From a virus (taxonomy: Duplodnaviria > Caudoviricetes), in the IMG/VR virus record IMGVR_UViG_3300028829_004880, positions 1 through 58,277 of that record: DNA of 58,277 nt; one strand, 5' to 3'. Position numbers and translations under genes: made by a program. This document shows positions 7,994 to 53,739 of this stretch, piece by piece. Below the pieces are notes generated by a model, which made no database searches, was not told where the DNA came from, and saw nothing but the letters and a program-made list of their open reading frames with translations. Each line of letters begins with the position of its first letter. Within the stretch, counting starts at the first letter, position 1.

Positions 7994-8119
7994 TGGGCGG
8001 AGTAGTGTTCGAACCTACATCTTCCGTTATGGATTTACGCTACCATAACACGGGGTTACCATGCTGGACTGAATCCAGACAACCTTCGCACGGACGCTCT
8101 ACCATTAAGCTATCCACCC
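7994..8119 (-). ncRNA. tRNA-like RNA with ~54-nt structured insert replacing the anticodon loop
   Basis: acceptor GGGTGGA/TCCGCCC, D arm GCTT..GAGC, stem TCCGT/ACGGA, TTCGAAC T loop. Confidence 0.65.
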
Positions 8120-9543: not shown

Positions 9544-9609
9544 TGGGGCAAAGAGGAATCAAACCTCAACTTTAAAGACCTAAATCTTTAAAGGTAAACA
9601 TACTGCCCC
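9544..9609 (-). ncRNA. D-armless tRNA-like RNA
   Basis: GGGGCAG/TTGCCCC-A, 9-bp hairpin, GAGG-TTTGATT-CCTC. Confidence 0.5.
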
Positions 9610-11568: not shown

Positions 11569-11646
11569 TGGCGGTCTAGGAGGGAGTCAAACCCTCGTTT
11601 TTGAGCAGAGACAGTGCAAATCCACCTTCAAGGGGCTCACTAGACC
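11569..11646 (-). tRNA. tRNA-Asp(GTC), degenerate D and anticodon stems, encoded CCA
   Basis: GGTCTAG/CTAGACC-G-CCA, loop CTGTCTC. Confidence 0.6.
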
Positions 11647-11881: not shown

Positions 11882-11966
11882 TGGTACTGCGTGTGGGAAT
11901 CGAACCCACTCTCCTATAATTGGCTGGGGTGAAAGCCCAGTCGCTCACCCAATTGCATTACGCAGC
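11882..11966 (-). tRNA. tRNA-Glu(TTC) with long variable region
   Basis: CTGGG-CTTTCAC-CCCAG, 14-nt variable region, encoded CCA. Confidence 0.75.
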
Positions 11967-18594: not shown

Positions 18595-18599
18595 ATTTG

Positions 18600-18687
18600 T
18601 TGCAGTAGTAGGATTCGAACCTACAGTGAGGTTTCAAACCTCGTCCCCCTCCACGGGGGATGTGTATGCCAATTCCACCATACTGCT
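18600..18687 (-). tRNA. Leu-type body with TGG at anticodon position (undetermined)
   Basis: Leu-like D arm, long variable arm, A73; loop CGTGGAG; A1:A72 mismatch. Confidence 0.55.
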
Positions 18688-21991: not shown

Positions 21992-22301
21992 CGGTAAGGT
22001 ATATCTTGTAGGAAACTTGGATGAAAATCTATATAAGATTGGTTGGACTAGAGGCGACATTAATAATCGTGTCCTTCAACTCCAAACAGGAAATCCTAAG
22101 AAAATTGAAGCTGTTAATGAATTTGAATCCAAGCATTATGTTAAACTTGAAACATACATGCATAATAGACATGGTAGTAAAAGACAAGAAGGTGAATGGT
22201 TTGAATTAACACAAGAAGATGTCATGAACTTTACCAACGATTGTCAGAGAGGTCATGACACCATTCAAATGCTTGTAGAATCTGGAAATCCATTTATTTA
22301 G
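21984..22301 (+). CDS. GIY-YIG family protein (T5orf172/MUG113-like)
   Basis: VYLV..YKIGWT..R..LQTGNP..E..MH..GEWF. Confidence 0.8.
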   Translation: MNNGKVYLVGNLDENLYKIGWTRGDINNRVLQLQTGNPKKIEAVNEFESKHYVKLETYMHNRHGSKRQEGEWFELTQEDVMNFTNDCQRGHDTIQMLVESGNPFI

Positions 22302-23520
22302 AACCTTCCAACCAATCCAAAAATTTTGTCGCATAAAATCCTTTACGAATCTTAACCAATAACTCATTAACCAATTCTAGGTCAACCTTGTCTGGAAGAC
22401 TTGACTCATCAAAGATGGTATCCATCTTCTCAATTGACTCATCAGCCATTGTGATAAGTTGTTCTAGGTCAACTTCACCACGTCTAATCCCTAATAACTC
22501 CTTAGCATCTGGTCTACGTACAATAATACCCTTTCCAGACCCAATTTCTTGAGCCATTCTGATTAGCCTCATGCAGTGCATCATATTCTTACCATCAATT
22601 TGTTGACCATGAGTCTTCGTATCTACATACCTTTGAGTGTTTCGATTTTCTAACCACTCTTGGTATTCTTTATAGTCCTTACAATGTCTAGTATAACCAT
22701 CCTTATTGTAAGTGAAGATAGCAATTGGATTTAATGGATGACCTAATTGAGTTGTCTTAGGAACCGAAGAAAGTCTAAGTTGGTTTGATTCACCAGCATT
22801 ACTAGAACCACCAACCTTTGTAATACCCTTAAATCCGAATCCGAATGACCTACCCTTTTCTTTTAGATAAGCTTTTCTTTCATCCTTAGATTCTTTTGAT
22901 AGTTGAGGGTGGAAACATCTAGATGCTTCATCATCATAATACAGTGCATACATATCTCTAGCGTTAGGGATATTTACAACACCACAAAACTTTTGTCCAC
23001 GGTAGTCTAAAAATTCCTTCATAGGGATAGTCTTATGACCCTTGATAATATAACAGAAGTCAAGGATTTCTTTACGAGTAACCTTGTCCTTATCATTCTC
23101 CCAATTTTGTTTCTTATTAAGACCCTTCGCTTTCTTGATTTGCTGTCTAGCATATCCACCGAATGAGTTCTTACAACCCTTGGTGATAAATTCAGCCTTG
23201 TGTTCAAGGATGATATCAAATAATGGGTGCTTAGAGATAATACAGTCCTCTGGTGAGTTAAGTAACTCAAGAACCGTTGGATTGTCTGTTCCAAGTAGTT
23301 CAAGGAAACGTCTTATTTCCCATCCCGTATAATCAGCGTTCACATTAAGTTGTTCAATATAACCCGTACCAAGAATGTGTTCTTGTGGTAGGATAAATAC
23401 GAACTTCTTATCAATGTCTGACGTAGGTGTTTGCGTTCCATAGGCTTGTGAACCCACAACTGTTTCAAAGAGAATAAGTCCATTCTCCTTAAGATATTCA
23501 TATGTAATTCCTTTGTTCAT
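22294..23520 (-). CDS. RlaP/NrdC.11-like nucleotidyltransferase (Pol-beta superfamily)
   Basis: VGSQAYGTQTPTSDID, NPTVLELL, KNMMHCMRL motifs. Confidence 0.8.
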   Translation of the reverse strand: MNKGITYEYLKENGLILFETVVGSQAYGTQTPTSDIDKKFVFILPQEHILGTGYIEQLNVNADYTGWEIRRFLELLGTDNPTVLELLNSPEDCIISKHPLFDIILEHKAEFITKGCKNSFGGYARQQIKKAKGLNKKQNWENDKDKVTRKEILDFCYIIKGHKTIPMKEFLDYRGQKFCGVVNIPNARDMYALYYDDEASRCFHPQLSKESKDERKAYLKEKGRSFGFGFKGITKVGGSSNAGESNQLRLSSVPKTTQLGHPLNPIAIFTYNKDGYTRHCKDYKEYQEWLENRNTQRYVDTKTHGQQIDGKNMMHCMRLIRMAQEIGSGKGIIVRRPDAKELLGIRRGEVDLEQLITMADESIEKMDTIFDESSLPDKVDLELVNELLVKIRKGFYATKFLDWLEGSK

Positions 23521-27393: not shown

Positions 27394-28455
27394 TTATAGT
27401 CCTACGTCTTTCATTTCCATCTCAAAGAACCACGTTCTAGCGACCTTTGAAATCTCTCCTTGAATTTCCTTAGGTTCGAATCCGTTACCCATAATGGTAT
27501 CCAATTCTTCCTTTACGATATCACCGACAATCCACTTAAGGAATGGTCCAAGGTTCTTTCTAGTCAAGTCAAGATTCTCCATTCTAAGTTGCTCAAGACC
27601 TTGCTCAAGTCTACCCTCAGTTACAAGGTTAGAAACCAACTCTTTCATGTTGTTGACTCTTTCGATATCAACTGGTGCAAGAGTCTTAGTTTTAGATGAC
27701 TGATGTTTCTCACCCTTCACCTTAAACCAATATCTAGATTTGTTCCACCCTTCGGTGATACATCTCCATACAATACCTTCCCCAACCCCAGAGTTACCAA
27801 ATGATTTACCAACTGGACATTCAGCTTCAATTACATTGGTTAATTCAACCAATTCATTTTGTGATTGTTCTGGATTGTTAAAGTCAATCTTAATCGTATG
27901 TGTTGGGTAATCTAAGATGTTGTAGATTTTATCCTCTGGAAGTTTGATTCTAGATAACTTATCATCATCCAACCATAGGTTATCAATCTTTATTGCAAAG
28001 ATAACAAACATCTTGTCAAGACCATTGAGTGCAACACCCTTTTGGATGTTACCACCACACCATTCACCATAAACTCTGATAACCTCTGGTGTATATCCCA
28101 TATCGTTACCCATTTCCTTTTCAATCTTATTAAGGATTGCTTCGGTGTTGCTAGTATGTGCAAATGCGGCAAATCCAGCATTATCCTTTGTTGGAGTGAT
28201 AATGTTCTTTCTAGATTGTGCATGCATATTATAATCATGCTTAAGCATATCCCATGTATATACAATAGCCGCATTGGTCCCATGTAACTTAACTGTACCC
28301 CTAAACTCAAGTGTTGGAACCTTCTTCGTTAAATCAAATGTTGGTTCACCATTTTCATCTTCACCAGTATAAGTGGCACGATGCTTTACTTGATGAATTA
28401 CCGTTCTAAATTGTTCAATACTAGGAAATTTGTACATTGTTTGTTCCATAATCAA
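27394..28455 (-). CDS. RNA ligase, Rnl2-like
   Basis: KLHGTN motif I, YGEWCG, GEGIVW, FKVKGEKH. Confidence 0.8.
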   Translation of the reverse strand: MIMEQTMYKFPSIEQFRTVIHQVKHRATYTGEDENGEPTFDLTKKVPTLEFRGTVKLHGTNAAIVYTWDMLKHDYNMHAQSRKNIITPTKDNAGFAAFAHTSNTEAILNKIEKEMGNDMGYTPEVIRVYGEWCGGNIQKGVALNGLDKMFVIFAIKIDNLWLDDDKLSRIKLPEDKIYNILDYPTHTIKIDFNNPEQSQNELVELTNVIEAECPVGKSFGNSGVGEGIVWRCITEGWNKSRYWFKVKGEKHQSSKTKTLAPVDIERVNNMKELVSNLVTEGRLEQGLEQLRMENLDLTRKNLGPFLKWIVGDIVKEELDTIMGNGFEPKEIQGEISKVARTWFFEMEMKDVGL

Positions 28456-34618: not shown

Positions 34619-35737
34619 TTATAATACTTTATATAACTTTTTGTTATCGTACTTTCTAAGGTACTCCTTTACTGACTCTACCTTACCATCTTTCATTCCG
34701 AAGAATAATCCACTGTAAGCCTTAAGGTCATCCTTGCCAATCAATTCAAATACCGCCATGGCGAATTTCTTTTGTTCTTTTGGTGTGATGTTCTTTGGTT
34801 TCTTGTCTTGCAACTTATCCCAAGCATCCTCAAGTGTATCAATTAATTTATTGTAACCTTCATAAAGCTTGAATATCTCTTCCTTTCTTTCTGGGAAAGT
34901 AGCGGAGAATTCCTCAATTTCATTAGATTTAACAACGTCCATTATAGCATGTTCTGATGTCTTAGACTTCAAGTGGTGAACCGCAACATATGCTGGGTTC
35001 TTTATCTTCACTCTATTGAAGTCACCATCAACAACAACGTAACCTTCTTCATGAAATGGCATTCCGTCGAAAGTCTTTTCAATATGACCTACGTTGGTTG
35101 CGTTAAGGTCAAATGACTTAACAAGTGGAATTCCAATTGACTCAGAAACCATCTTCATATCCTCGTAAGTTACCTCTTTAAGTGTCTTTCTATTTCTCAT
35201 TGCTAAGAACGTAGCAGAAGACTCCCCATGTGGCTTCACAACGATATTGTATGGAGTAGTTAACTCGAATACGTAAATGTGGTCCTTATCTAATAAACAG
35301 TCATTGAATCCGTACTTTTCAGCAACAGTATTCCAAAACAAATCATTAAATGTTGTACCATACTTGTTATTCACTTCCCCTTCACCTTCGGCTGTACCAG
35401 TAGTAGCAGCGAACCACTTCTCCTTGTTCCAATCGAAATATACTTGTATCATTGTACCATCACACTTTTCAAGTATACGTGCTGTGTTCCAATCTATCTT
35501 TGCAGCATGACCCTCAGCTGAGTTGAAGAACTTTCTAAATGAAAGACATAATATATTCCATGTATCCTTTTCAAGTATAAGTCCTCTACAATCTTGTACC
35601 TCAGAAAACCCCATAGACGATGCTATTTGGTCATACTTGATAAGAACCTTCTTATCGTAGTCCCTAGTCTTCAACTTAAACTCAGCTACTGCCTTATCAA
35701 GTCCATTTTCTTTTATGTATTTGATTATACTTAACAT
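34619..35737 (-). CDS. RNA ligase, T4 Rnl1-like
   Basis: CRGLIL, KFFN, EKCDGT, FELT, EGYVV, RVKIK. Confidence 0.85.
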   Translation of the reverse strand: MLSIIKYIKENGLDKAVAEFKLKTRDYDKKVLIKYDQIASSMGFSEVQDCRGLILEKDTWNILCLSFRKFFNSAEGHAAKIDWNTARILEKCDGTMIQVYFDWNKEKWFAATTGTAEGEGEVNNKYGTTFNDLFWNTVAEKYGFNDCLLDKDHIYVFELTTPYNIVVKPHGESSATFLAMRNRKTLKEVTYEDMKMVSESIGIPLVKSFDLNATNVGHIEKTFDGMPFHEEGYVVVDGDFNRVKIKNPAYVAVHHLKSKTSEHAIMDVVKSNEIEEFSATFPERKEEIFKLYEGYNKLIDTLEDAWDKLQDKKPKNITPKEQKKFAMAVFELIGKDDLKAYSGLFFGMKDGKVESVKEYLRKYDNKKLYKVL

Positions 35738-37040: not shown

Positions 37041-37865
37041 TTATACTATTACTTTAGATTCAACCCATTGGGTTAATGATTTAACATACTTCTCAATATC
37101 TGCATGATAGAAACCAACAGAGTTCATACACCCACACTCAATGATATAGTATCTCATATCACCATCGTCGTGTCTTGTTTCCGCTATATCCATAGCAAAT
37201 ACCTCATGTGGTTGGTATTCCTTGCATCTGTCCTCTACGAACTTAATCATATCTTCTGGGATATCATCACCAGACTTAGAAAGTCTAAAATTATTTCTAT
37301 ATCTTGAAGATGTGATAACCTTCCCATCCACAACATAGTTTCTCCACTCACGTTGTAGGTTATAGGCTGGTCCTAAGACTAATTTAGATTCCATGGTCAT
37401 TGGTGACTCATAATCCATCATTCTCTTAACCATGGACTTTAATTCCTCAACCTCACCAACTTGACCATCGAATTCTTTACCATCACCATCTGGGCGAAGG
37501 AACATATTCAATTGATGACCAAAATCCTCCAACTCAATGAAGTCTTTAACTGTTATAATCTCAGCATCAGAACTCAACATATGTTCACCCCACTTTTCGA
37601 AGTAATTCTCCATTGAAAATGTTTCATGATTATAGAATAACCCAATTGGTTTTAACTTATTATAAAGATTATTCATGAATGTAGTGGAACCGTAATATAT
37701 GTTCTCATACTCATCATCTAATGGGAAATCTGGTAACTCATCTGAAAATGGTACCACAATCACCTCATGATGTGCAATATTAAGTTTATCACAAGCCTCT
37801 TGAAATTGATTTCTATCATTTTCCGCTATTAGATTATTTTGAATAATCCATCGTACTTTCTTCAT
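37041..37865 (-). CDS. ATP-grasp protein (R2K/DUF4343-like)
   Basis: FLRP..DGKEFDG, EWRNYVVDG, MDIA, IIECGCMNSVGFY. Confidence 0.75.
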   Translation of the reverse strand: MKKVRWIIQNNLIAENDRNQFQEACDKLNIAHHEVIVVPFSDELPDFPLDDEYENIYYGSTTFMNNLYNKLKPIGLFYNHETFSMENYFEKWGEHMLSSDAEIITVKDFIELEDFGHQLNMFLRPDGDGKEFDGQVGEVEELKSMVKRMMDYESPMTMESKLVLGPAYNLQREWRNYVVDGKVITSSRYRNNFRLSKSGDDIPEDMIKFVEDRCKEYQPHEVFAMDIAETRHDDGDMRYYIIECGCMNSVGFYHADIEKYVKSLTQWVESKVIV

Positions 37866-38812
37866 TATAATTTGTTTTCAGTAACAACCCCACTAAGGTT
37901 AATATATGAATCCAATTTTTCCCAATTAGTGATTTGGTTAGACATAACTGGCTTCCCACCAGCGTTGACGTTTACCGCTACTGTTACGTGTGGTAAATCG
38001 TTATCTGAATGATATCCTTCTACCTTTACAGCAATAGCCATATCAGATATACCTATCTCAGTAGCTCTAATAGAAACACTATTACCTAAATCACCCTTCA
38101 AATTCTCTGGTAATCCCTTACCATAATTAACTGTCATGTGATGTGCGTAAATCTTCCACCCTTCTGGAATTTGATGTCCTATAGCAGTAAGTAGTTTCTT
38201 CTTAGACGCATCATCTAATACTACCATAGCAATCTTACGTTGCTTATTCTTATACATTGGCTTCGCACCTACAACCTTTTCAACTGTAAGTGGACCTACA
38301 CTCTTATAAGACTGAATCATAGCCTCAATCTTATCCAATGGTACACCATGAGTATTTCTCTCAGCCAATTCCTCAGCTGACACACCACCAGTACCAACTT
38401 CAACGAATTTAATATTCTCGTTAGTATAACCTAATCTTAATGCCGCTTCAACATAATTTTTTGGTTCGTTAGCTTTGATATTGGTATTATCTATAATAAC
38501 TGGTGAGATACCCATAGACATAGACTTCTTAGCCCTATTAAAATTCTCAGAATGTACTTGGGATAATGGTGAGAAATCTTTATTCTCTATCATATCACTA
38601 AAAAACTGACGATAATCAAATTTAGATTCAATAATATCATCTGTTGAATGAATTACTCCAGAACCAACTAATTGTTTGGCTTTGGTAGATTTACCAGAAC
38701 CAGGAATTCCACGCATAATAATCAATACTTGATTTGGTCTCGTCATTGCGAAACCCATTGCATTTACTTCTTTACCTTCTCTAAGGATTTTCTTTATAGA
38801 CTCTTTACTCAT
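37865..38812 (-). CDS. polynucleotide kinase (AAA_33) fused to 2H cyclic phosphodiesterase
   Basis: MRGIPGSGKST, IIDNTN, RNTHGVP; HHMT and PHVT motifs. Confidence 0.8.
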   Translation of the reverse strand: MSKESIKKILREGKEVNAMGFAMTRPNQVLIIMRGIPGSGKSTKAKQLVGSGVIHSTDDIIESKFDYRQFFSDMIENKDFSPLSQVHSENFNRAKKSMSMGISPVIIDNTNIKANEPKNYVEAALRLGYTNENIKFVEVGTGGVSAEELAERNTHGVPLDKIEAMIQSYKSVGPLTVEKVVGAKPMYKNKQRKIAMVVLDDASKKKLLTAIGHQIPEGWKIYAHHMTVNYGKGLPENLKGDLGNSVSIRATEIGISDMAIAVKVEGYHSDNDLPHVTVAVNVNAGGKPVMSNQITNWEKLDSYINLSGVVTENKL

Positions 38813-41884: not shown

Positions 41885-42059
41885 ATTTGAAGTAGTAACT
41901 GGTTTTTCACCAGTATCAGTACTCTAGGGCTTATTTACCGTATCCCATCTCAATTAGGTGTAGGGCTACGGCTACTGATTCATCCCCTCGATAATGGCTG
42001 TTCCTACCAAAACCTTAACGACTTAACTCGTTAGTGATTAATTCACGATACTACTTTTG

Positions 42060-42131
42060 TACCCCCACCTAGACTCGAACTAGGATTATCGGTTTAGAAA
42101 ACCGAGGTTCTATCCCTTGAACTATGGGGGC
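42060..42131 (-). tRNA. tRNA-Arg(TCT)
   Basis: canonical cloverleaf. Confidence 0.88.
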
Positions 42132-42625: not shown

Positions 42626-42706
42626 GAGACGGTGGAGGGAATCGAACCCACATTTTCAGCTCCTTTTACGGATGACAATTTAGAAAAATGCCTCGGCTAC
42701 ACCGCC
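42626..42706 (-). tRNA. D-armless tRNA-Arg(TCT)-like
   Basis: GGCGGTG/CACCGTC, TAGCCGAG linker, loop TTTCTAA, 23-nt variable region. Confidence 0.6.
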
Positions 42707-42714
42707 ATGTGTTG

Positions 42715-42788
42715 TACACTTACAGGGACTCGAACCCCGAATCTCTCGGTTCGTAGCCGAGTGCTTTATCCAATTAAGCGATAAGTGC
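42715..42788 (-). tRNA. tRNA-Arg(ACG)
   Basis: canonical cloverleaf. Confidence 0.9.
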
Positions 42789-42793
42789 ATTTG

Positions 42794-42866
42794 TGGACCC
42801 ACCCAGAATCAAACTGGGACCCGAAGTTTAGGAAACTTCAATTCTATTCAGTTAAACTATGGTTCC
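42794..42866 (-). tRNA. tRNA-Arg(CCT)
   Basis: GAAGT-TTCCTAA-ACTTC. Confidence 0.8.
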
Positions 42867-42978
42867 ATATACCTAAGATAAAAAGCAGTGTCTAGTTTCA
42901 TACGGTAACTTACTCCTAACTTACTTCCGTGCTGACATACAATAAGGGTTACCACCACGAGTATGCTTCTAGGTATTG

Positions 42979-43048
42979 TACCGAGTACGAGGTTCGAACT
43001 CGCTTAACCATCCATATGAAGGACGGTCCTTTTCCACTAAGCCTCGGC
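42979..43048 (-). tRNA. tRNA-Met(CAT), weak D arm
   Basis: CGTCC-TTCATAT-GGATG. Confidence 0.65.
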
Positions 43049-43060
43049 ATGTGTATATTG

Positions 43061-43132
43061 CTCTAGTGGAGAATTTCGAAATCTCGACCTATCCGTTAAC
43101 AGCGGATTGCTCTGCCTCTGAGCTACACTAGA
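43061..43132 (-). tRNA. tRNA-Asn(GTT)
   Basis: cloverleaf, G73. Confidence 0.88.
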
Positions 43133-43184
43133 ATATTAAAGTGCCAAATTGTTATTTTAATTGGTGATTTGGCACACCAATAAG

Positions 43185-43258
43185 TGGTCCCAGCTGGGCT
43201 CGAACCAGCGACCCTCGCATTATGAGTGCGATACTCTAACCAACTGAGCTATAGGACC
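43185..43258 (-). tRNA. tRNA-CAT (Met or lysidine-type Ile2)
   Basis: canonical cloverleaf, loop CTCATAA. Confidence 0.85.
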
Positions 43259-43278
43259 TGTAAAACATTTCTCTTTTT

Positions 43279-43596
43279 TTAATTTATCATTTCTAACGTA
43301 ATTGCCATCAAAAATGAACCAAGACCAGTACCAAAGAATGTTGCCCATGCATCAACAAGGTCAAATTGACCCTTCTTTAGTAATAAGTCCCAAATAACTT
43401 CCTTAGCTATACCAGCGGCTACACCAGCACCCACACCGACTAACACACCTCTTTCAATGTTATTGAAGGCTGTTCCATCATAAGCGAAGATAAGTCCTAC
43501 TATTACTGAGATACCAAATCCAGCATAGAAATGTAATTTTTTGTCTTTTGGTATTGAACCAATAAAATCTTTAATTTTTTTCATAATTTTTTTCAT
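43279..43596 (-). CDS. small membrane protein
   Basis: DKKLHF..G and KE..WD motifs, TM helices; start moved to 43596 to avoid tRNA overlap. Confidence 0.55.
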   Translation of the reverse strand: MKKIMKKIKDFIGSIPKDKKLHFYAGFGISVIVGLIFAYDGTAFNNIERGVLVGVGAGVAAGIAKEVIWDLLLKKGQFDLVDAWATFFGTGLGSFLMAITLEMIN

Positions 43597-43619
43597 AATA
43601 ATTGTTTTATTATAAATAG

Positions 43620-43699
43620 TCGGGAAAGTGGGATTCGAACCCACGTTTTCAAGTACCGCTACGAATATACATGATATAAGCATGCCTCGCTATATCCCG
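43620..43699 (-). tRNA. D-armless tRNA-Ile(TAT)-like
   Basis: TAGCGAG linker, GCATG-CTTATAT-CATGT, long variable region, canonical T arm. Confidence 0.6.
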
Positions 43700-43790
43700 A
43701 TTGGTGTGCTCATCCTAATGCCTCACATCCCCGAAGGTATGGTTTGCATAACAGGGCTATAGTTCCTGTTCTAAGCGTGGGTAGAACGTG

Positions 43791-43869
43791 TTGCGCTGGT
43801 GGATTCTGAGACCACATTTCCAACACCTTTACGAATATCCAAGTTATCAGCTTGGCTCGGTACAGCGCA
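43791..43869 (-). tRNA. D-armless tRNA-Ile(GAT)-like
   Basis: TACCGAG linker, CCAAG-CTGATAA-CTTGG, long variable region, odd T loop. Confidence 0.55.
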
Positions 43870-43875
43870 ATTTAG

Positions 43876-43958
43876 TTGTGTCGGTGGGAATCGAACCCAC
43901 TTTGTACTTTCGTACCCACGTTATCAGCGTGGTGCCTAAACCATCCAACCCCGACACA
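43876..43958 (-). tRNA. tRNA-Ile(GAT) with variable-arm hairpin
   Basis: CCACG-CTGATAA-CGTGG, GTAC-GAAA-GTAC. Confidence 0.75.
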
Positions 43959-44803: not shown

Positions 44804-44898
44804 CGGAGAGAGAGGGATTCGAACCCTCACGCCACCCAGAGGACGAGACGGTTTTCAAAACCGCTACCGTTACCCAGAATCTATCGGTTAACCTCTCC
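44804..44898 (-). tRNA. tRNA-Ser(TGA), enlarged D loop
   Basis: class II, loop TTTGAAA, G73. Confidence 0.8.
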
Positions 44899-47447: not shown

Positions 47448-48608
47448 CTATAACATTACCTTAAACTTCTCCGTTTCAAGTTGTTTTATTGCTTTACCCA
47501 TTTCTGGTCCAGCTTCCACACCTAACTCTTTTTGAGCATCAGCACCAGTTACACTCAATCTAAAGTCTATAAATGCGTCAAGCATCTTAGAATCTAAGTT
47601 GATAAATCTACCGAACTTTCTTATTTGTTCATCTGATAACCCAGCGTTAACTTGTTGCTTCTTGAATACAAATACATCCTCTGGGTTATTGAATTGTTGT
47701 AATGCAACCAAGAATGTGATAGCCTTAACCTCAGTACTTGAGTAAGTCAACTTATTAAGTACCTTACCTAACTTATGTGGGTCGTTATCCTTAAGTAACC
47801 AAGCAAGTAGCACAATTGGGTCTCTTTCTTCTAAGAAGTTCTTAGATACACTTAATCCCTTGAATACATCATTGAATAAGTTGTACTTATCTAATAACCC
47901 TAAGAATTGGTTGATTGTCTTTGTTGTCTTAACACCCTTTAAGAATTCATCTCTGATTCTCTCTGGACTAATACCATCAAGACTAGCATCCTTCTTAAGT
48001 GCCGCATCAACGTTTGGTTCCAATTCACTACCAAATCTACCAGCAAATCTAATTGCTCTAAGGATTCTAAGTCTATCTTCTTCAAATCTTTCCTCTGGTG
48101 CGCCAACAGTTCTCACAATACCTTTCTTAAGGTCTGAGATACCACCTACAAGGTCAACTATCTCATTTGTATTTATATCAAAGAAAAGTGCATTGATTGT
48201 AAGGTCACGTCTCTTAACATCTTGGTCAATAGTCGTAAACTCAACTGCATCTGGTCTTCTACCAGAACCTATATCTTTTCTGAATGTTGCGATTTCATAT
48301 TCATCAGTATCACTGAATACATTGATTACTCCGAATGCCTTACCAGTTGGGATAGTCTTGAAACCACCCTTCGCCATTATAGCTTCCACTTGGTCTGGGT
48401 TAGCATCAGTTGCGAGGTCCCAATCCTTAGGTGTTTTACCTAAAAGGGCATCTCTTACAGCACCACCAACAACATACAATTTAAAACCGTTTTTAACAAA
48501 CACGTCTTTAATCTCAAGTATATCACTTGGTATTGTAAGGTTAAACTTAACTCGGTTCTCCGTGATAAGTCCTTCTCTAATTCTATTTCTAATAAATTCT
48601 TTCATCAT
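47448..48608 (-). CDS. cca: CCA-adding enzyme (class II tRNA nucleotidyltransferase)
   Basis: VGGAVRD..G..PKDWD, EIATFR, RRDLTINA, EDRLRILRAIRF, ERIRDE. Confidence 0.9.
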   Translation of the reverse strand: MMKEFIRNRIREGLITENRVKFNLTIPSDILEIKDVFVKNGFKLYVVGGAVRDALLGKTPKDWDLATDANPDQVEAIMAKGGFKTIPTGKAFGVINVFSDTDEYEIATFRKDIGSGRRPDAVEFTTIDQDVKRRDLTINALFFDINTNEIVDLVGGISDLKKGIVRTVGAPEERFEEDRLRILRAIRFAGRFGSELEPNVDAALKKDASLDGISPERIRDEFLKGVKTTKTINQFLGLLDKYNLFNDVFKGLSVSKNFLEERDPIVLLAWLLKDNDPHKLGKVLNKLTYSSTEVKAITFLVALQQFNNPEDVFVFKKQQVNAGLSDEQIRKFGRFINLDSKMLDAFIDFRLSVTGADAQKELGVEAGPEMGKAIKQLETEKFKVML

Positions 48609-48642
48609 AACAAATATAGTCATTTAAATCTTAGTATCCAAA

Positions 48643-52074: not shown

Positions 52075-52179
52075 TGGGGAGACTAGGACTTGAACCTAGA
52101 CTTACCGAAGTCGTACTCGAATATTTCATAAAGAAGGAGGTTCTCTATGAAATAGTATTCTCTCTTATACTATCTCCCC
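52075..52179 (-). ncRNA. tRNA-like RNA with 13-bp anticodon stem and CCTCC loop
   Basis: GGGGAGA/TCTCCCC-A, GTAT/ATAC D stem, CTAGG-TTCAAGT-CCTAG. Confidence 0.7.
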
Positions 52180-53248: not shown

Positions 53249-53370
53249 AACGTTGTTTTTATGATAAATACCTTCGTAAACGTAAAAGTATAAAAACAAC
53301 GAAGCCCCGCATTCTTGTCAATACGAGGCTTAATATTTCACTCCCAACTTGTGGGTGTGGAGCGTTAGCG

Positions 53371-53739
53371 TGGAGTTGGAGAGATTCGAACTCTCGTCTT
53401 GCTTACACATAAAGTGTTTTCTACATGCTTATCTAGTTTCTAATTCTAGCAAAGTTTACTAGTTCCCGATTTTACAAGTCGGTGTTTCTAATAAAAGTTA
53501 TCTTGGATATATGTTTACTTCGTTTATCATTGAAGTTCGGTACGATACCAGTACCATGTGCTGTTTTAGGCTACAGCCATCTCTCCGTCAAGCACACCTA
53601 TCGATGCGTTGTCAAGGAAATTTTCGGATACAGTTAAGTTTCCAGTTAAATTTGTGTCTCAGTTTTAACAGCTTGTCCACTTCGCTGTGCATGCTTACAA
53701 ATCATGTTTTAATAAACAATCAAATGCCAGTCAACCCCA
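53371..53739 (-). ncRNA. ssrA: tmRNA; tag (A)GNLTVSENFLDNASIGVLDGEMAVA at 53566-53643
   Basis: GGGGTTG/CAACTCC-A with G3:U70, 5' GGCATTTGA, T arm GAGAG-TTCGAAT-CTCTC, resume context TTAACT-GGA. Confidence 0.9.

Follow-up and report, generated by a model that had tools for sequence, protein, structure and literature searches.

According to a review of non-canonical tRNAs, mitochondrial transfer RNAs (tRNAs) without a D arm rely on flexibility, their connector being unpaired, their variable region short and their T loops relaxed (PMC7609411). For bacteria, a 2024 paper states that all known tRNAs adopt the cloverleaf, and presents an engineered D-arm-less 'mini HisT' as showing that a bacterial aminoacyl-tRNA synthetase, EF-Tu and the ribosome can use a tRNA without a D hairpin (PMC11551756). 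Here, three tRNA-like elements (c1, c2 and c3) are analysed in IMG/VR virus record IMGVR_UViG_3300028829_004880, whose 58,277 nucleotides (nt; hereafter the window) have an estimated completeness of 16% and a G+C content of 35%. In all three, the D hairpin between nt 9 and 26 is missing and 7-8 nt separate the acceptor and anticodon stems. Sequence comparison makes it likely that c1 and c2, and probably c3 as well, function as phage tRNA genes and belong to a separate architectural family, one that is restricted to Arg and Ile. Their fold, in my assessment with good confidence, would not be D-armless, as the D stem appears to form in trans with the anticodon arm nested inside it.

The coordinates of the initial annotation stand for all three elements, which lie on the minus strand, apart from position 42626, which is one base past the c1 discriminator; c1 occupies 42627-42706. 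The linkers of 7-8 nt ending in CGAG, the common variable-region motif and the anticodons TCT, TAT and GAT can, as annotated, be read directly from the sequence. In each element, an acceptor stem of 7 base pairs (bp) is followed by a linker of 7-8 nt, an anticodon arm (5-bp stem, 7-nt loop), 23-24 nt, a T arm with a 5-bp stem, the second acceptor strand and the discriminator. The features are given below as read from the sequence, together with bit scores from the Rfam tRNA model (RF00005) and from R1, a covariance model trained on nine 80-nt Arg-type members of the family, c1 included and c2 not.

42627..42706, minus strand: c1, non-canonical tRNA-Arg(UCU), 80 nt including the discriminator T; the next bases are CAA, and CCA is not encoded. 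From 42706 to 42627: GGCGGTG / TAGCCGAG / GCATT-TTTCTAA-ATTGT / 23 nt / GTGGG-TTCGATT-CCCTC / CACCGTC / T, where TAGCCGAG is the 8-nt linker.
42694..42699, minus strand: c1 nt 8-13 (TAGCCG), putative 5' strand of the trans D stem, nt 8-11 with 47-50 and nt 12-13 with 38-37; 10-48, 11-47 and 13-37 covary in 58 gapless homologues.
42675..42691, minus strand: c1 anticodon arm GCATT TTTCTAA ATTGT, anticodon TCT at 42682-42684; its five stem pairs are double-changed within the family.
42661..42670, minus strand: c1 CG, predicted partner of nt 12-13, and the 8-nt D-loop-like bulge TAAAAGGA with A14-, R15-, G18G19- and A20-like positions (R, purine).
42652..42660, minus strand: c1 GCTG, predicted 3' strand and partner of nt 11-8, and the spacer AAAAT, whose final T pairs with the bulge A in a Levitt-like manner.
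42635..42651, minus strand: c1 T arm GTGGG TTCGATT CCCTC, with one U-U in the stem that recurs in the family.
43620..43699, minus strand: c2, non-canonical tRNA-Ile(UAU), 80 nt, discriminator A; Rfam 33.1 bits, R1 58.1 bits. From 43699 to 43620: CGGGATA / TAGCGAG / GCATG-CTTATAT-CATGT / 24 nt / GTGGG-TTCGAAT-CCCAC / TTTCCCG / A.
43686..43692, minus strand: c2 linker TAGCGAG; predicted pairs are G10 with C 43653, CG with CG 43662-43663, and the next A with T 43664.
43669..43685, minus strand: c2 anticodon arm GCATG CTTATAT CATGT, anticodon TAT at 43676-43678.
43645..43668, minus strand: c2 24-nt variable region, comprising ATATT, CG, the bulge TAGCGGTA (43654-43661), C (43653), TTG and AAAAC; the bulge G pairs with the final C, Levitt-like.
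43791..43869, minus strand: c3, family member with anticodon GAT (Ile), an aberrant T arm and discriminator A; R1 41.6 bits over the full length. From 43869 to 43791: TGCGCTG / TACCGAG / CCAAG-CTGATAA-CTTGG / 23 nt / GTGGT-CTCAGAA-TCCAC / CAGCGCA / A.
43856..43862, minus strand: c3 linker TACCGAG.
43816..43838, minus strand: c3 23-nt variable region, comprising ATATT, CG (43832-43833), the bulge TAAAGGT (43825-43831), G (43824), TTG and GAAAT; G 43824 pairs with C10.

The 7-bp acceptor stem, the 5-bp anticodon stem with its 7-nt loop, U33 and R37 are present in all three elements. A T arm with the G53-C61 pair and a T-psi-C-R-A loop is found in c1 and c2 and is missing in c3, where U55- and C56-like bases are kept and T54, A58 and the G53-C61 pair are lost. 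The T-stem pair at alignment columns 76-90 falls into the class 'other' in 14 of 136 family members. Comparison with homologues on related contigs, of which L120 is a syntenic relative with 75-85% identity overall, revealed compensatory differences in the acceptor and T stems of c1 (parsed sequences from L120 and L009) and, for c2 against L120, a change of G10-C to C10-G and of an anticodon-stem T-A to A-T.

In the proposed fold, nt 8-13 would form an uninterrupted strand, and its partners would be two segments within the 23-26 nt that separate the anticodon and T arms. Nt 12-13, or 12-14, would pair with the two or three bases directly before a conserved U-A, while nt 10-11, and probably 8-9, would pair with the two to four bases directly before an A-rich 5-nt spacer. 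The bulge of 8-10 nt between these segments would then be D-loop-like and follow the pattern U-A(14)-R(15)-N-N-G(18)-G(19)-A/U(20), N being any base; the spacing from R to GG is that of position 15 to 18/19, and the base after GG is A in Arg members and U or G in Ile members. The bulge R would pair with the pyrimidine that directly precedes the T stem, in the manner of the R15-Y48 Levitt pair (Y, pyrimidine), and the spacer AAAAY would be the equivalent of variable loop 44-48 in both length and position. The trans D stem may stack on the anticodon stem to give ~12-14 layers, similar to a canonical anticodon/D arm, and the bulge would supply elbow and core contacts. In the three elements, the trans-D pairs are G10-C, C11-G, C12-G and G13-C in c1, G10-C, C-G, G-C and A-T in c2, and C10-G, C-G, G-C and A-T in c3, with Levitt-like pairs of A-T, G-C and A-T, respectively. 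Finding equivalents of the D stem, the D loop, the Levitt pair and the variable loop argues for a rearranged topology and not for a D-armless one.

Covariation was assessed by a hypothesis-free mutual-information scan of all column pairs, with average product correction, in 58 gapless 80-nt members. Its top 21 pairs were 16 acceptor, anticodon and T stem pairs, interleaved with the following:

10-48: 98% canonical, 4 pair types
11-47: 95% canonical, 4 pair types
13-37: 97% canonical, 4 pair types
14-36: 60% canonical, 5 pair types
41-55: 100% canonical (58/58), 2 types, A-U or G-C

A MAFFT alignment of the same 58 members, which was gap-free and fitted to no structure, gave counts of GC 32, AU 21, CG 2, UA 2 and other 1 for 10-48; CG 37, UA 13, AU 4, UG 1 and other 3 for 11-47; CG 57 and other 1 for 12-38; GC 46, AU 6, CG 3, GU 1 and other 2 for 13-37; and AU 53 and GC 5 for 41-55. 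Over the six new pairs, 91.4% of cells were paired as opposed to 73.5 ± 1.1% after shuffling, a level that 0 of 500 shuffles reached, and the covariation score was 0.55 versus 0.20 for shuffled columns. Sliding the partner by 1-3 columns resulted in 22-33% pairing and covariation scores of 0.06-0.11. The slid control is favoured here because the structure was derived from the same sequences, and the mutual-information scan is the unbiased result. The term 'D-armless' of the initial annotation, taken in its mitochondrial sense, is not upheld: covariation ties nt 10-13 of the linker to the variable region (10-48, 11-47, 13-37), and 41-55 is paired in every one of the 58 members.

Arg and Ile members were also counted separately, with the UA that precedes GG and the spacing to the T stem as the only anchors and without any use of complementarity:

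12-12': Arg 100% (n = 102); Ile 97% (n = 35)
13-13': Arg 99%, 5 types (n = 102); Ile 97% (n = 35)
10-10': Arg 98%, 5 types (n = 82, 8-nt linker); Ile 88%, 5 types (n = 33, 7-nt linker)
11-11': Arg 91% (n = 82, 8-nt linker); Ile n = 2
14-36: Arg 62% (n = 102); Ile 86% (n = 35)

Neighbouring registers paired at 2-20% in most comparisons. The R after TA pairs with the last base of the variable region in 101/102 Arg and 35/35 Ile members, and in the latter the pair is G-C in 25 and A-T in 10. The new pairs hold, too, in a model-fitted alignment of 136 distinct rows, in which the acceptor, anticodon and T stems show double changes or covariation at all positions. No counts were taken from a MAFFT alignment that combined Arg with Ile members, in which linkers of 7 and of 8 nt were placed out of register.

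The initial annotation regarded c1-c3 as a family of three, which turned out to be too narrow, as they belong to an Arg/Ile family spread over many phage contigs. A strict pattern built from the variable-region and T-arm motif common to c1-c3 retrieved 23 viral-contig stretches, all 23 with the same layout and with differing acceptor and anticodon stems, and three stretches in one genome per species of 185,579 prokaryote species, all on contigs of metagenome-assembled genomes (MAGs). For a looser pattern, a structural parser found, among the matches listed, a member in 79 of 106 new viral loci versus 1 of 119 new genome loci; looser-pattern matches in genome contigs were thus rejected as members, nearly all being due to chance. 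The members derived from genomes or MAGs are found within phage-like arrays that comprise 11-14 tRNAs. For the first 27 sources, R1 gave members at least 41.6 bits and ordinary tRNAs at most 31.8 bits, and over 92 sources it returned 138 matches, 136 of them distinct, at E<=1e-7. The covariance-model search that had been suggested in the initial annotation thereby yielded 136 distinct homologues with compensatory changes in every stem. Within the window and with filters off, the only full-model matches were c1 (91.4 bits, a training sequence), c2 and c3; ordinary tRNAs there scored 31.8 bits at most.

All but one of the 136 homologues carry an Arg or Ile anticodon: TCT (50), TCG (23), ACG (23), CCT (6) and GCG (2) for Arg, and TAT (22) and GAT (9) for Ile. 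The lone CTT (Lys) member, L103:11003-11080, is one base from Arg CCT and may represent an anticodon shift or a dead copy. Members occur on contigs of 4 kb to 479 kb with 39-64% G+C, mostly viral, and complete or named records hold 1-3 copies. Four cultured phages carry the following members:

Maribacter phage Panino, PP540027.1, 28066-28145: Arg-TCT, R1 90.3 bits; partly under a 'hypothetical protein'
Pseudomonas phage Boevelstad, PQ464592.1, 16691-16770: Arg-TCT, R1 80.3 bits; unannotated
Vibrio phage vB_VpS_PG07, MH645904.1, 39749-39828: Arg-ACG, R1 81.8 bits; unannotated
Caulobacter phage CcrPW, NC_048046.1, about 76771-76851: Arg-ACG, R1 69.9 bits; unannotated

In Boevelstad (locus L253), the member stands alone as a tRNA gene, ARAGORN finding zero in 5 kb, and an annotated RNA ligase gene lies ~300 nt upstream of it. 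With the PG07 member as blastn query, 298 Vibrio phage records were matched, and 60 of the 60 rows listed had either no feature under the match or an unannotated record. R1 gave 0 matches at E<=1e-5 in 151 Flavobacteriaceae genomes, with 31 candidates scored in each. In 151 genomes of the class of genome G006, 48 genomes (among them the unpublished G195 and G297, with a single match each, on which nothing else here relies) had matches of 71-73 nt at 37-43 bits; the three of these that were inspected were rejected as canonical tRNA-Gly(TCC), twice, and tRNA-Met, once, with the middle of the model skipped. Separately, ARAGORN called 90-94 nt tRNA-Ile(tat) genes with the anticodon at 31-34 in related loci (L008:2940-3033, L010:9102-9192, L072:9282-9372, L103:10655-10744 and L026:4036-4128), which may be another long non-standard Ile(UAU) type in phage arrays.

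Standard tools largely overlook these genes. ARAGORN calls c2 alone of the three elements, as 'tRNA-Thr(tgt)'; with the Rfam tRNA model, whose gathering score is 29 bits, c2 passes, c1 reaches 28.8 bits, and c3 has no match up to E=10. The Rfam alignment of c2 places 4 nt in the 15 D-arm positions and inserts 21 nt in the variable region. Rfam tRNA scores are thus near or under the threshold. Of the 154 occurrences in the family, ARAGORN overlooked 143, and it misread the anticodon in 6. Its readings of c2 as Thr(tgt), of the L009 member as Asp(atc) and of the L254 member as Arg(ccg) are ruled out by the double changes at five anticodon-stem pairs and by the invariant U33 and R37. Given these misses and the members left unannotated in the cultured-phage records inspected, Arg and Ile tRNAs of phages are undercounted in analyses of tRNA repertoires and codon usage.

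The conservation pattern fits decoding tRNAs. In the model-defined set, U33 and R37 are each present in 136/136 and Y32 in 135/136, and CCA directly follows the discriminator in 56/136. After GG, 101 of 102 Arg members have A, as opposed to T (26), G (7) or A (2) in Ile members; the discriminator is A in 31/31 Ile members and A, G, U or rarely C in Arg members, and C35 is present in all Arg anticodons. These marks match bacterial identity sets, which, according to PMC9976931, comprise A20, C35, U/G36 and A/G/U73 for Arg, and A73 and D-loop positions for Ile. Together with the encoded CCA, the isotype marks argue for charged, decoding tRNAs. The members sit in tRNA arrays; 154 occurrences were counted over 106 loci. 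For 19 of the occurrences, the fetched locus also contains a canonical tRNA that shares the anticodon of the member, and for the other 135 it does not, so that a member is usually the sole such isoacceptor nearby. The window is among the minority, as canonical neighbours repeat the anticodons of c1 (Arg-TCT, 42059-42131) and c3 (Ile-GAT, 43875-43958). The genes would be transcribed with the neighbouring tRNAs and trimmed, and CCA would be added by a host enzyme or by the phage enzyme encoded at 47448-48623. Charging by ArgRS or IleRS may use the anticodon and the A20-like or A73 marks. The codons that the three elements would then read, AGA, AUA and AUY, are in heavy use in this AT-rich phage: over 41 open reading frames (ORFs) of the window, AGA accounts for 63% of the codons for Arg, and ATA for 30% of those for Ile.

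The same data bear on how the fold itself should be read. If these were truly D-armless tRNAs, the linker would be unpaired as in mitochondrial tRNA-Ser(AGY) and the variable region would be an independent extra arm; the D position indeed lacks a hairpin, and the c1 variable region allows a TCC/GGA mini-hairpin to be drawn. Moreover, RNAalifold, run on the 138-row alignment, predicts the three classical stems only and none of the new helices, which is expected for 2-bp segments split by a bulge, yet counts against them. Further points weigh against the trans D stem: the new helices are absent from single-sequence minimum-free-energy folds as well; the 14-36 pair is canonical in just ~60% of the Arg class; and U8-G50 and A9-U49 pairing is plausible, but these positions are almost invariant (UG 130, UA 3 and CG 1 at 8-50; AU 127 and other 4 at 9-49 in the 136-row alignment), which makes covariation uninformative there. 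The D-armless alternative is nevertheless very improbable, as linker nt 10, 11 and 13 covary with bases of the variable region, whereas a self-contained variable hairpin (35-37 with 44-46) is paired at the shuffled level (66.7% versus 66.6%) with no double change, and the canonical T loop and the conserved GG indicate a structured core and not a floppy one. The D stem in trans is therefore the reading followed here. Its restriction to Arg and Ile holds for the sequence family and not necessarily for the architecture, because the retrieval patterns used the variable-region and T-arm motif, and this, too, has to be set against it.

Whether the genes work at all, and as tRNAs, raises two other possibilities. 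Functionless pseudogenes that decayed after duplication within the array would fit the duplication of the c1 and c3 anticodons by canonical neighbours, several further degenerate tRNA-like stretches in the window, and certain irregularities that speak against working genes: one T-T mismatch in the c2 acceptor stem, and in c3 a T loop (CTCAGAA) without the usual TTCRA and a T-T at the end of the T stem. The initial annotation had favoured a functional alternative fold over decay, and this view is borne out by the 136 distinct homologues with compensatory changes in every stem and by the compensatory changes of c1 and c2 relative to L120; with the isotype marks, the encoded CCA in 56/136 and a member as the sole tRNA with its anticodon in 135 of 154 occurrences, decay of the family as a whole is extremely unlikely. 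For c3 alone, it is a possibility to be taken more seriously, although still an unlikely one. Its type of T arm recurs, among 139 parsed members, only in the near-identical L120 copy (L120:4356-4434), which differs at two variable-region positions, one of them breaking the nt 10 pair (C-C). The c3 block, including 91 nt downstream, is nearly identical between the window phage and the L120 phage, and its conservation is uninformative for this reason. The R1 score of c3 also falls within the 37-43 bits that R1 gives canonical tRNA-Gly and tRNA-Met by middle-skipping alignments, and it counts only because the c3 alignment is full-length. From its sequence, c3 is probably a family member of uncertain activity. 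Transcription data are ambiguous as well: a metatranscriptome contig (X6 record 27) matches 42640-42790 with no differences and bridges c1 and the adjacent tRNA-Arg(ACG), but at a depth of 2.1, like that of neighbouring coding stretches, with DNA carry-over possible. Two metatranscriptome libraries contain parts of the window as low-depth contigs, and among the pieces listed none extends over c2 or c3. Alternatively, the members may be non-decoding, tRNA-shaped RNAs that serve as decoys or nuclease-resistant substitutes against host defences targeting tRNAs, or as regulators or primers. The window does encode two RNA ligases, an RlaP-family protein, an AAA_33 protein, a CCA-adding enzyme and a transfer-messenger RNA (tmRNA), the Boevelstad member lies just downstream of an RNA ligase gene, and canonical and non-canonical tRNAs with the same anticodon stand side by side in the window. 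However, no defence system or nuclease linked to the members was found here, the features conserved here, namely the anticodon loop, the identity marks and CCA, are those required of a tRNA for decoding, and same-anticodon canonical duplicates are in the minority (19/154); a role as resistant substitute would in any case add to decoding and not replace it. A non-decoding role is thus improbable, and working Arg and Ile tRNAs remain the preferred interpretation.

Some observations around c1-c3 concern their immediate surroundings. The homologue of c2 in L120 (4093-4190) has a 9-nt insertion, GATTACTTC, in the A-rich spacer before the T stem, which counts against the proposed reading, and scores only 39.3 bits with R1. 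The 91-nt spacer between c3 and c2 (43700-43790, minus strand) is nearly identical in L120, with flanks of 75-85% identity, and structure is not indicated for it (fold z = 0.05). The neighbouring tRNA-Ile(GAT) (43875-43958, minus strand, 84 nt) keeps its D arm and has a long variable hairpin (GTAC GAAA GTAC); it is class-II-like though its isotype is not a class II one, and shows compensatory differences relative to L120.

In the whole window, ARAGORN called 32 tRNAs and the tmRNA, on the minus strand throughout, and Rfam gave 31 tRNA matches and the tmRNA at the gathering score. Of the named phage records, those of two uncultured phages of 635-642 kb match the DNA of the window best, and in view of these matches and of the many tRNA and RNA genes, the window can be taken as a fragment of a large phage that invests heavily in tRNA biology. 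Pfam scans covering 20 window ORFs, together with the RNA calls, revealed a cluster for RNA repair and tRNA maturation:

22294-23520, minus strand: RlaP-family RNA-repair protein (Pfam)
27394-28455, minus strand: RNA ligase (Pfam)
34619-35737, minus strand: RNA ligase of a different family from that at 27394-28455 (Pfam)
37865-38812, minus strand: kinase-like AAA_33 protein (Pfam)
47448-48623, minus strand: CCA-adding-enzyme-like gene (Pfam PolyA_pol head domain, E 2.9e-37)
53368-53738, minus strand: tmRNA, part of the RNA-repair/tRNA-maturation cluster

PARP-like, ClpP and DnaJ genes (Pfam) are found near this cluster. The phage CCA-adding enzyme could finish c1-c3, none of which has an encoded CCA.

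Several other unusual tRNA genes or tRNA-like stretches were seen. ARAGORN called an 85-nt tRNA-Glu (11882-11966, minus strand) and an 89-nt tRNA-Pro (18599-18687, minus strand) in the window, and Asn, Ile, Met and Thr tRNAs of 85-90 nt in related loci. A tRNA-like element at 11572-11646 (minus strand; R1 31.8 bits, Rfam tRNA 25.3 bits) has a good acceptor stem and T arm; its TGAG...CTCA helix and AAAAAC spacer resemble the outer helix of the c1-c3 family, and its 30-nt interior fits no anticodon arm. An odd tRNA-like gene with anticodon CAT (42979-43048, minus strand; Rfam tRNA 23.8 bits) seems to miss nt 8-9 and is overlapped by an RNA-library contig covering 42992-43142. Further non-standard tRNA matches include two with large insertions (7994-8119, 126 nt, and 52075-52179, 105 nt, both minus strand) and one of 24.7 bits at 9544-9609 (minus strand), while a Ser(TGA)-like tRNA (44805-44898, minus strand) was detected by the tRNA-Sec model alone, at 34.4 bits.

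On the simplest view, one of descent, an Arg tRNA with this fold would have spread among phages and diversified over the Arg anticodons, and Ile(UAU) would have arisen from UCU by one anticodon change. A more speculative idea is suggested by the RNA-repair genes nearby and by the juxtaposition, in the window, of canonical and non-canonical isoacceptors, namely that phages evolved and spread a second tRNA architecture of different topology, usable by host synthetases and ribosomes, and kept it because the altered D domain evades or resists host factors acting on canonical tRNAs. I consider this rather unlikely, though not remote, and the same goes for the idea that the factors evaded might be tRNA-cleaving defence nucleases or degradation or modification enzymes. 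If true, the fold would be part of a counter-defence toolkit with the RNA ligases, RlaP, the CCA-adding enzyme and the tmRNA, and protection against host tRNA-directed defences would be a new counter-defence principle. Independently of this, the family appears to be a natural, widespread and apparently functional exception, in bacterial cells, to the single-cloverleaf rule beyond mitochondrial oddities, with a D domain seemingly rebuilt from non-contiguous strands and with D-loop-like, Levitt-like and identity positions kept. It may serve as a natural experiment on the core features that ArgRS, IleRS, EF-Tu, RNase P, CCA-adding enzymes and the ribosome require, and its members are possible scaffolds for orthogonal tRNAs; as cultured and harmless phage-host pairs carry them, the family is directly testable.

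Among the known kinds of non-standard tRNA, the mitochondrial D-armless tRNA-Ser(AGY) and nematode tRNA-Ser share with the phage family the missing D hairpin and a short connector after the acceptor stem (PMC7609411). Unlike these forms, which are found in organelles, the phage family occurs in phages, its connector is predicted to pair with a long downstream region, it retains D-loop- and Levitt-like elements, and c1 and c2 have a canonical T loop. With class II tRNAs (Leu, Ser and Tyr in bacteria), it has in common more than 20 nt between the anticodon and T arms and a total of 79-82 nt, but class II tRNAs have a D arm and a self-contained variable hairpin, whereas the family has neither, its long region would pair with nt 8-13, and its isotypes are Arg and Ile. 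Allo-tRNAs, that is, 8/4 or 9/3 tRNAs, are likewise non-standard cloverleaves from metagenome mining, some of them in phage tRNA clusters; they alter the lengths of the acceptor and T stems and keep the D stem-loop, as described in PMC5389517, while the family has the standard 7/5 split and a rearranged D domain. The engineered 'mini HisT' is artificial and truly without a D arm and, according to its description, its use depended on a host mutation in pnp, which codes for an RNase that takes part in tRNA degradation (PMC11551756). The words phage and virus do not occur in the 2020 review of non-canonical tRNAs (PMC7609411), and a full-text literature search, with subscription journals and supplements outside its reach, found no account of a phage or bacterial tRNA whose D hairpin is missing or whose D arm is rearranged. 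The family may thus represent a tRNA with a new secondary-structure topology that is undescribed in the literature searched, although an earlier mention is possible. Compared with canonical tRNA-Arg and tRNA-Ile (RF00005), it keeps the 7-bp acceptor stem, the 5-bp anticodon stem, U33 and R37, and, in c1 and c2, the 5-bp T stem with its TTCRA loop; it also keeps U8-A9, the G-G dinucleotide, an R-Y pair of the Levitt type, a 5-nt stretch before the T stem, the A20-like and A73 marks and the location in tRNA arrays. What sets it apart from them is that the D hairpin is missing between nt 9 and the anticodon arm, and that the predicted 3' strand of the D stem and a D-loop-like sequence lie downstream of the anticodon arm, with the loop as a bulge that splits this 3' strand.

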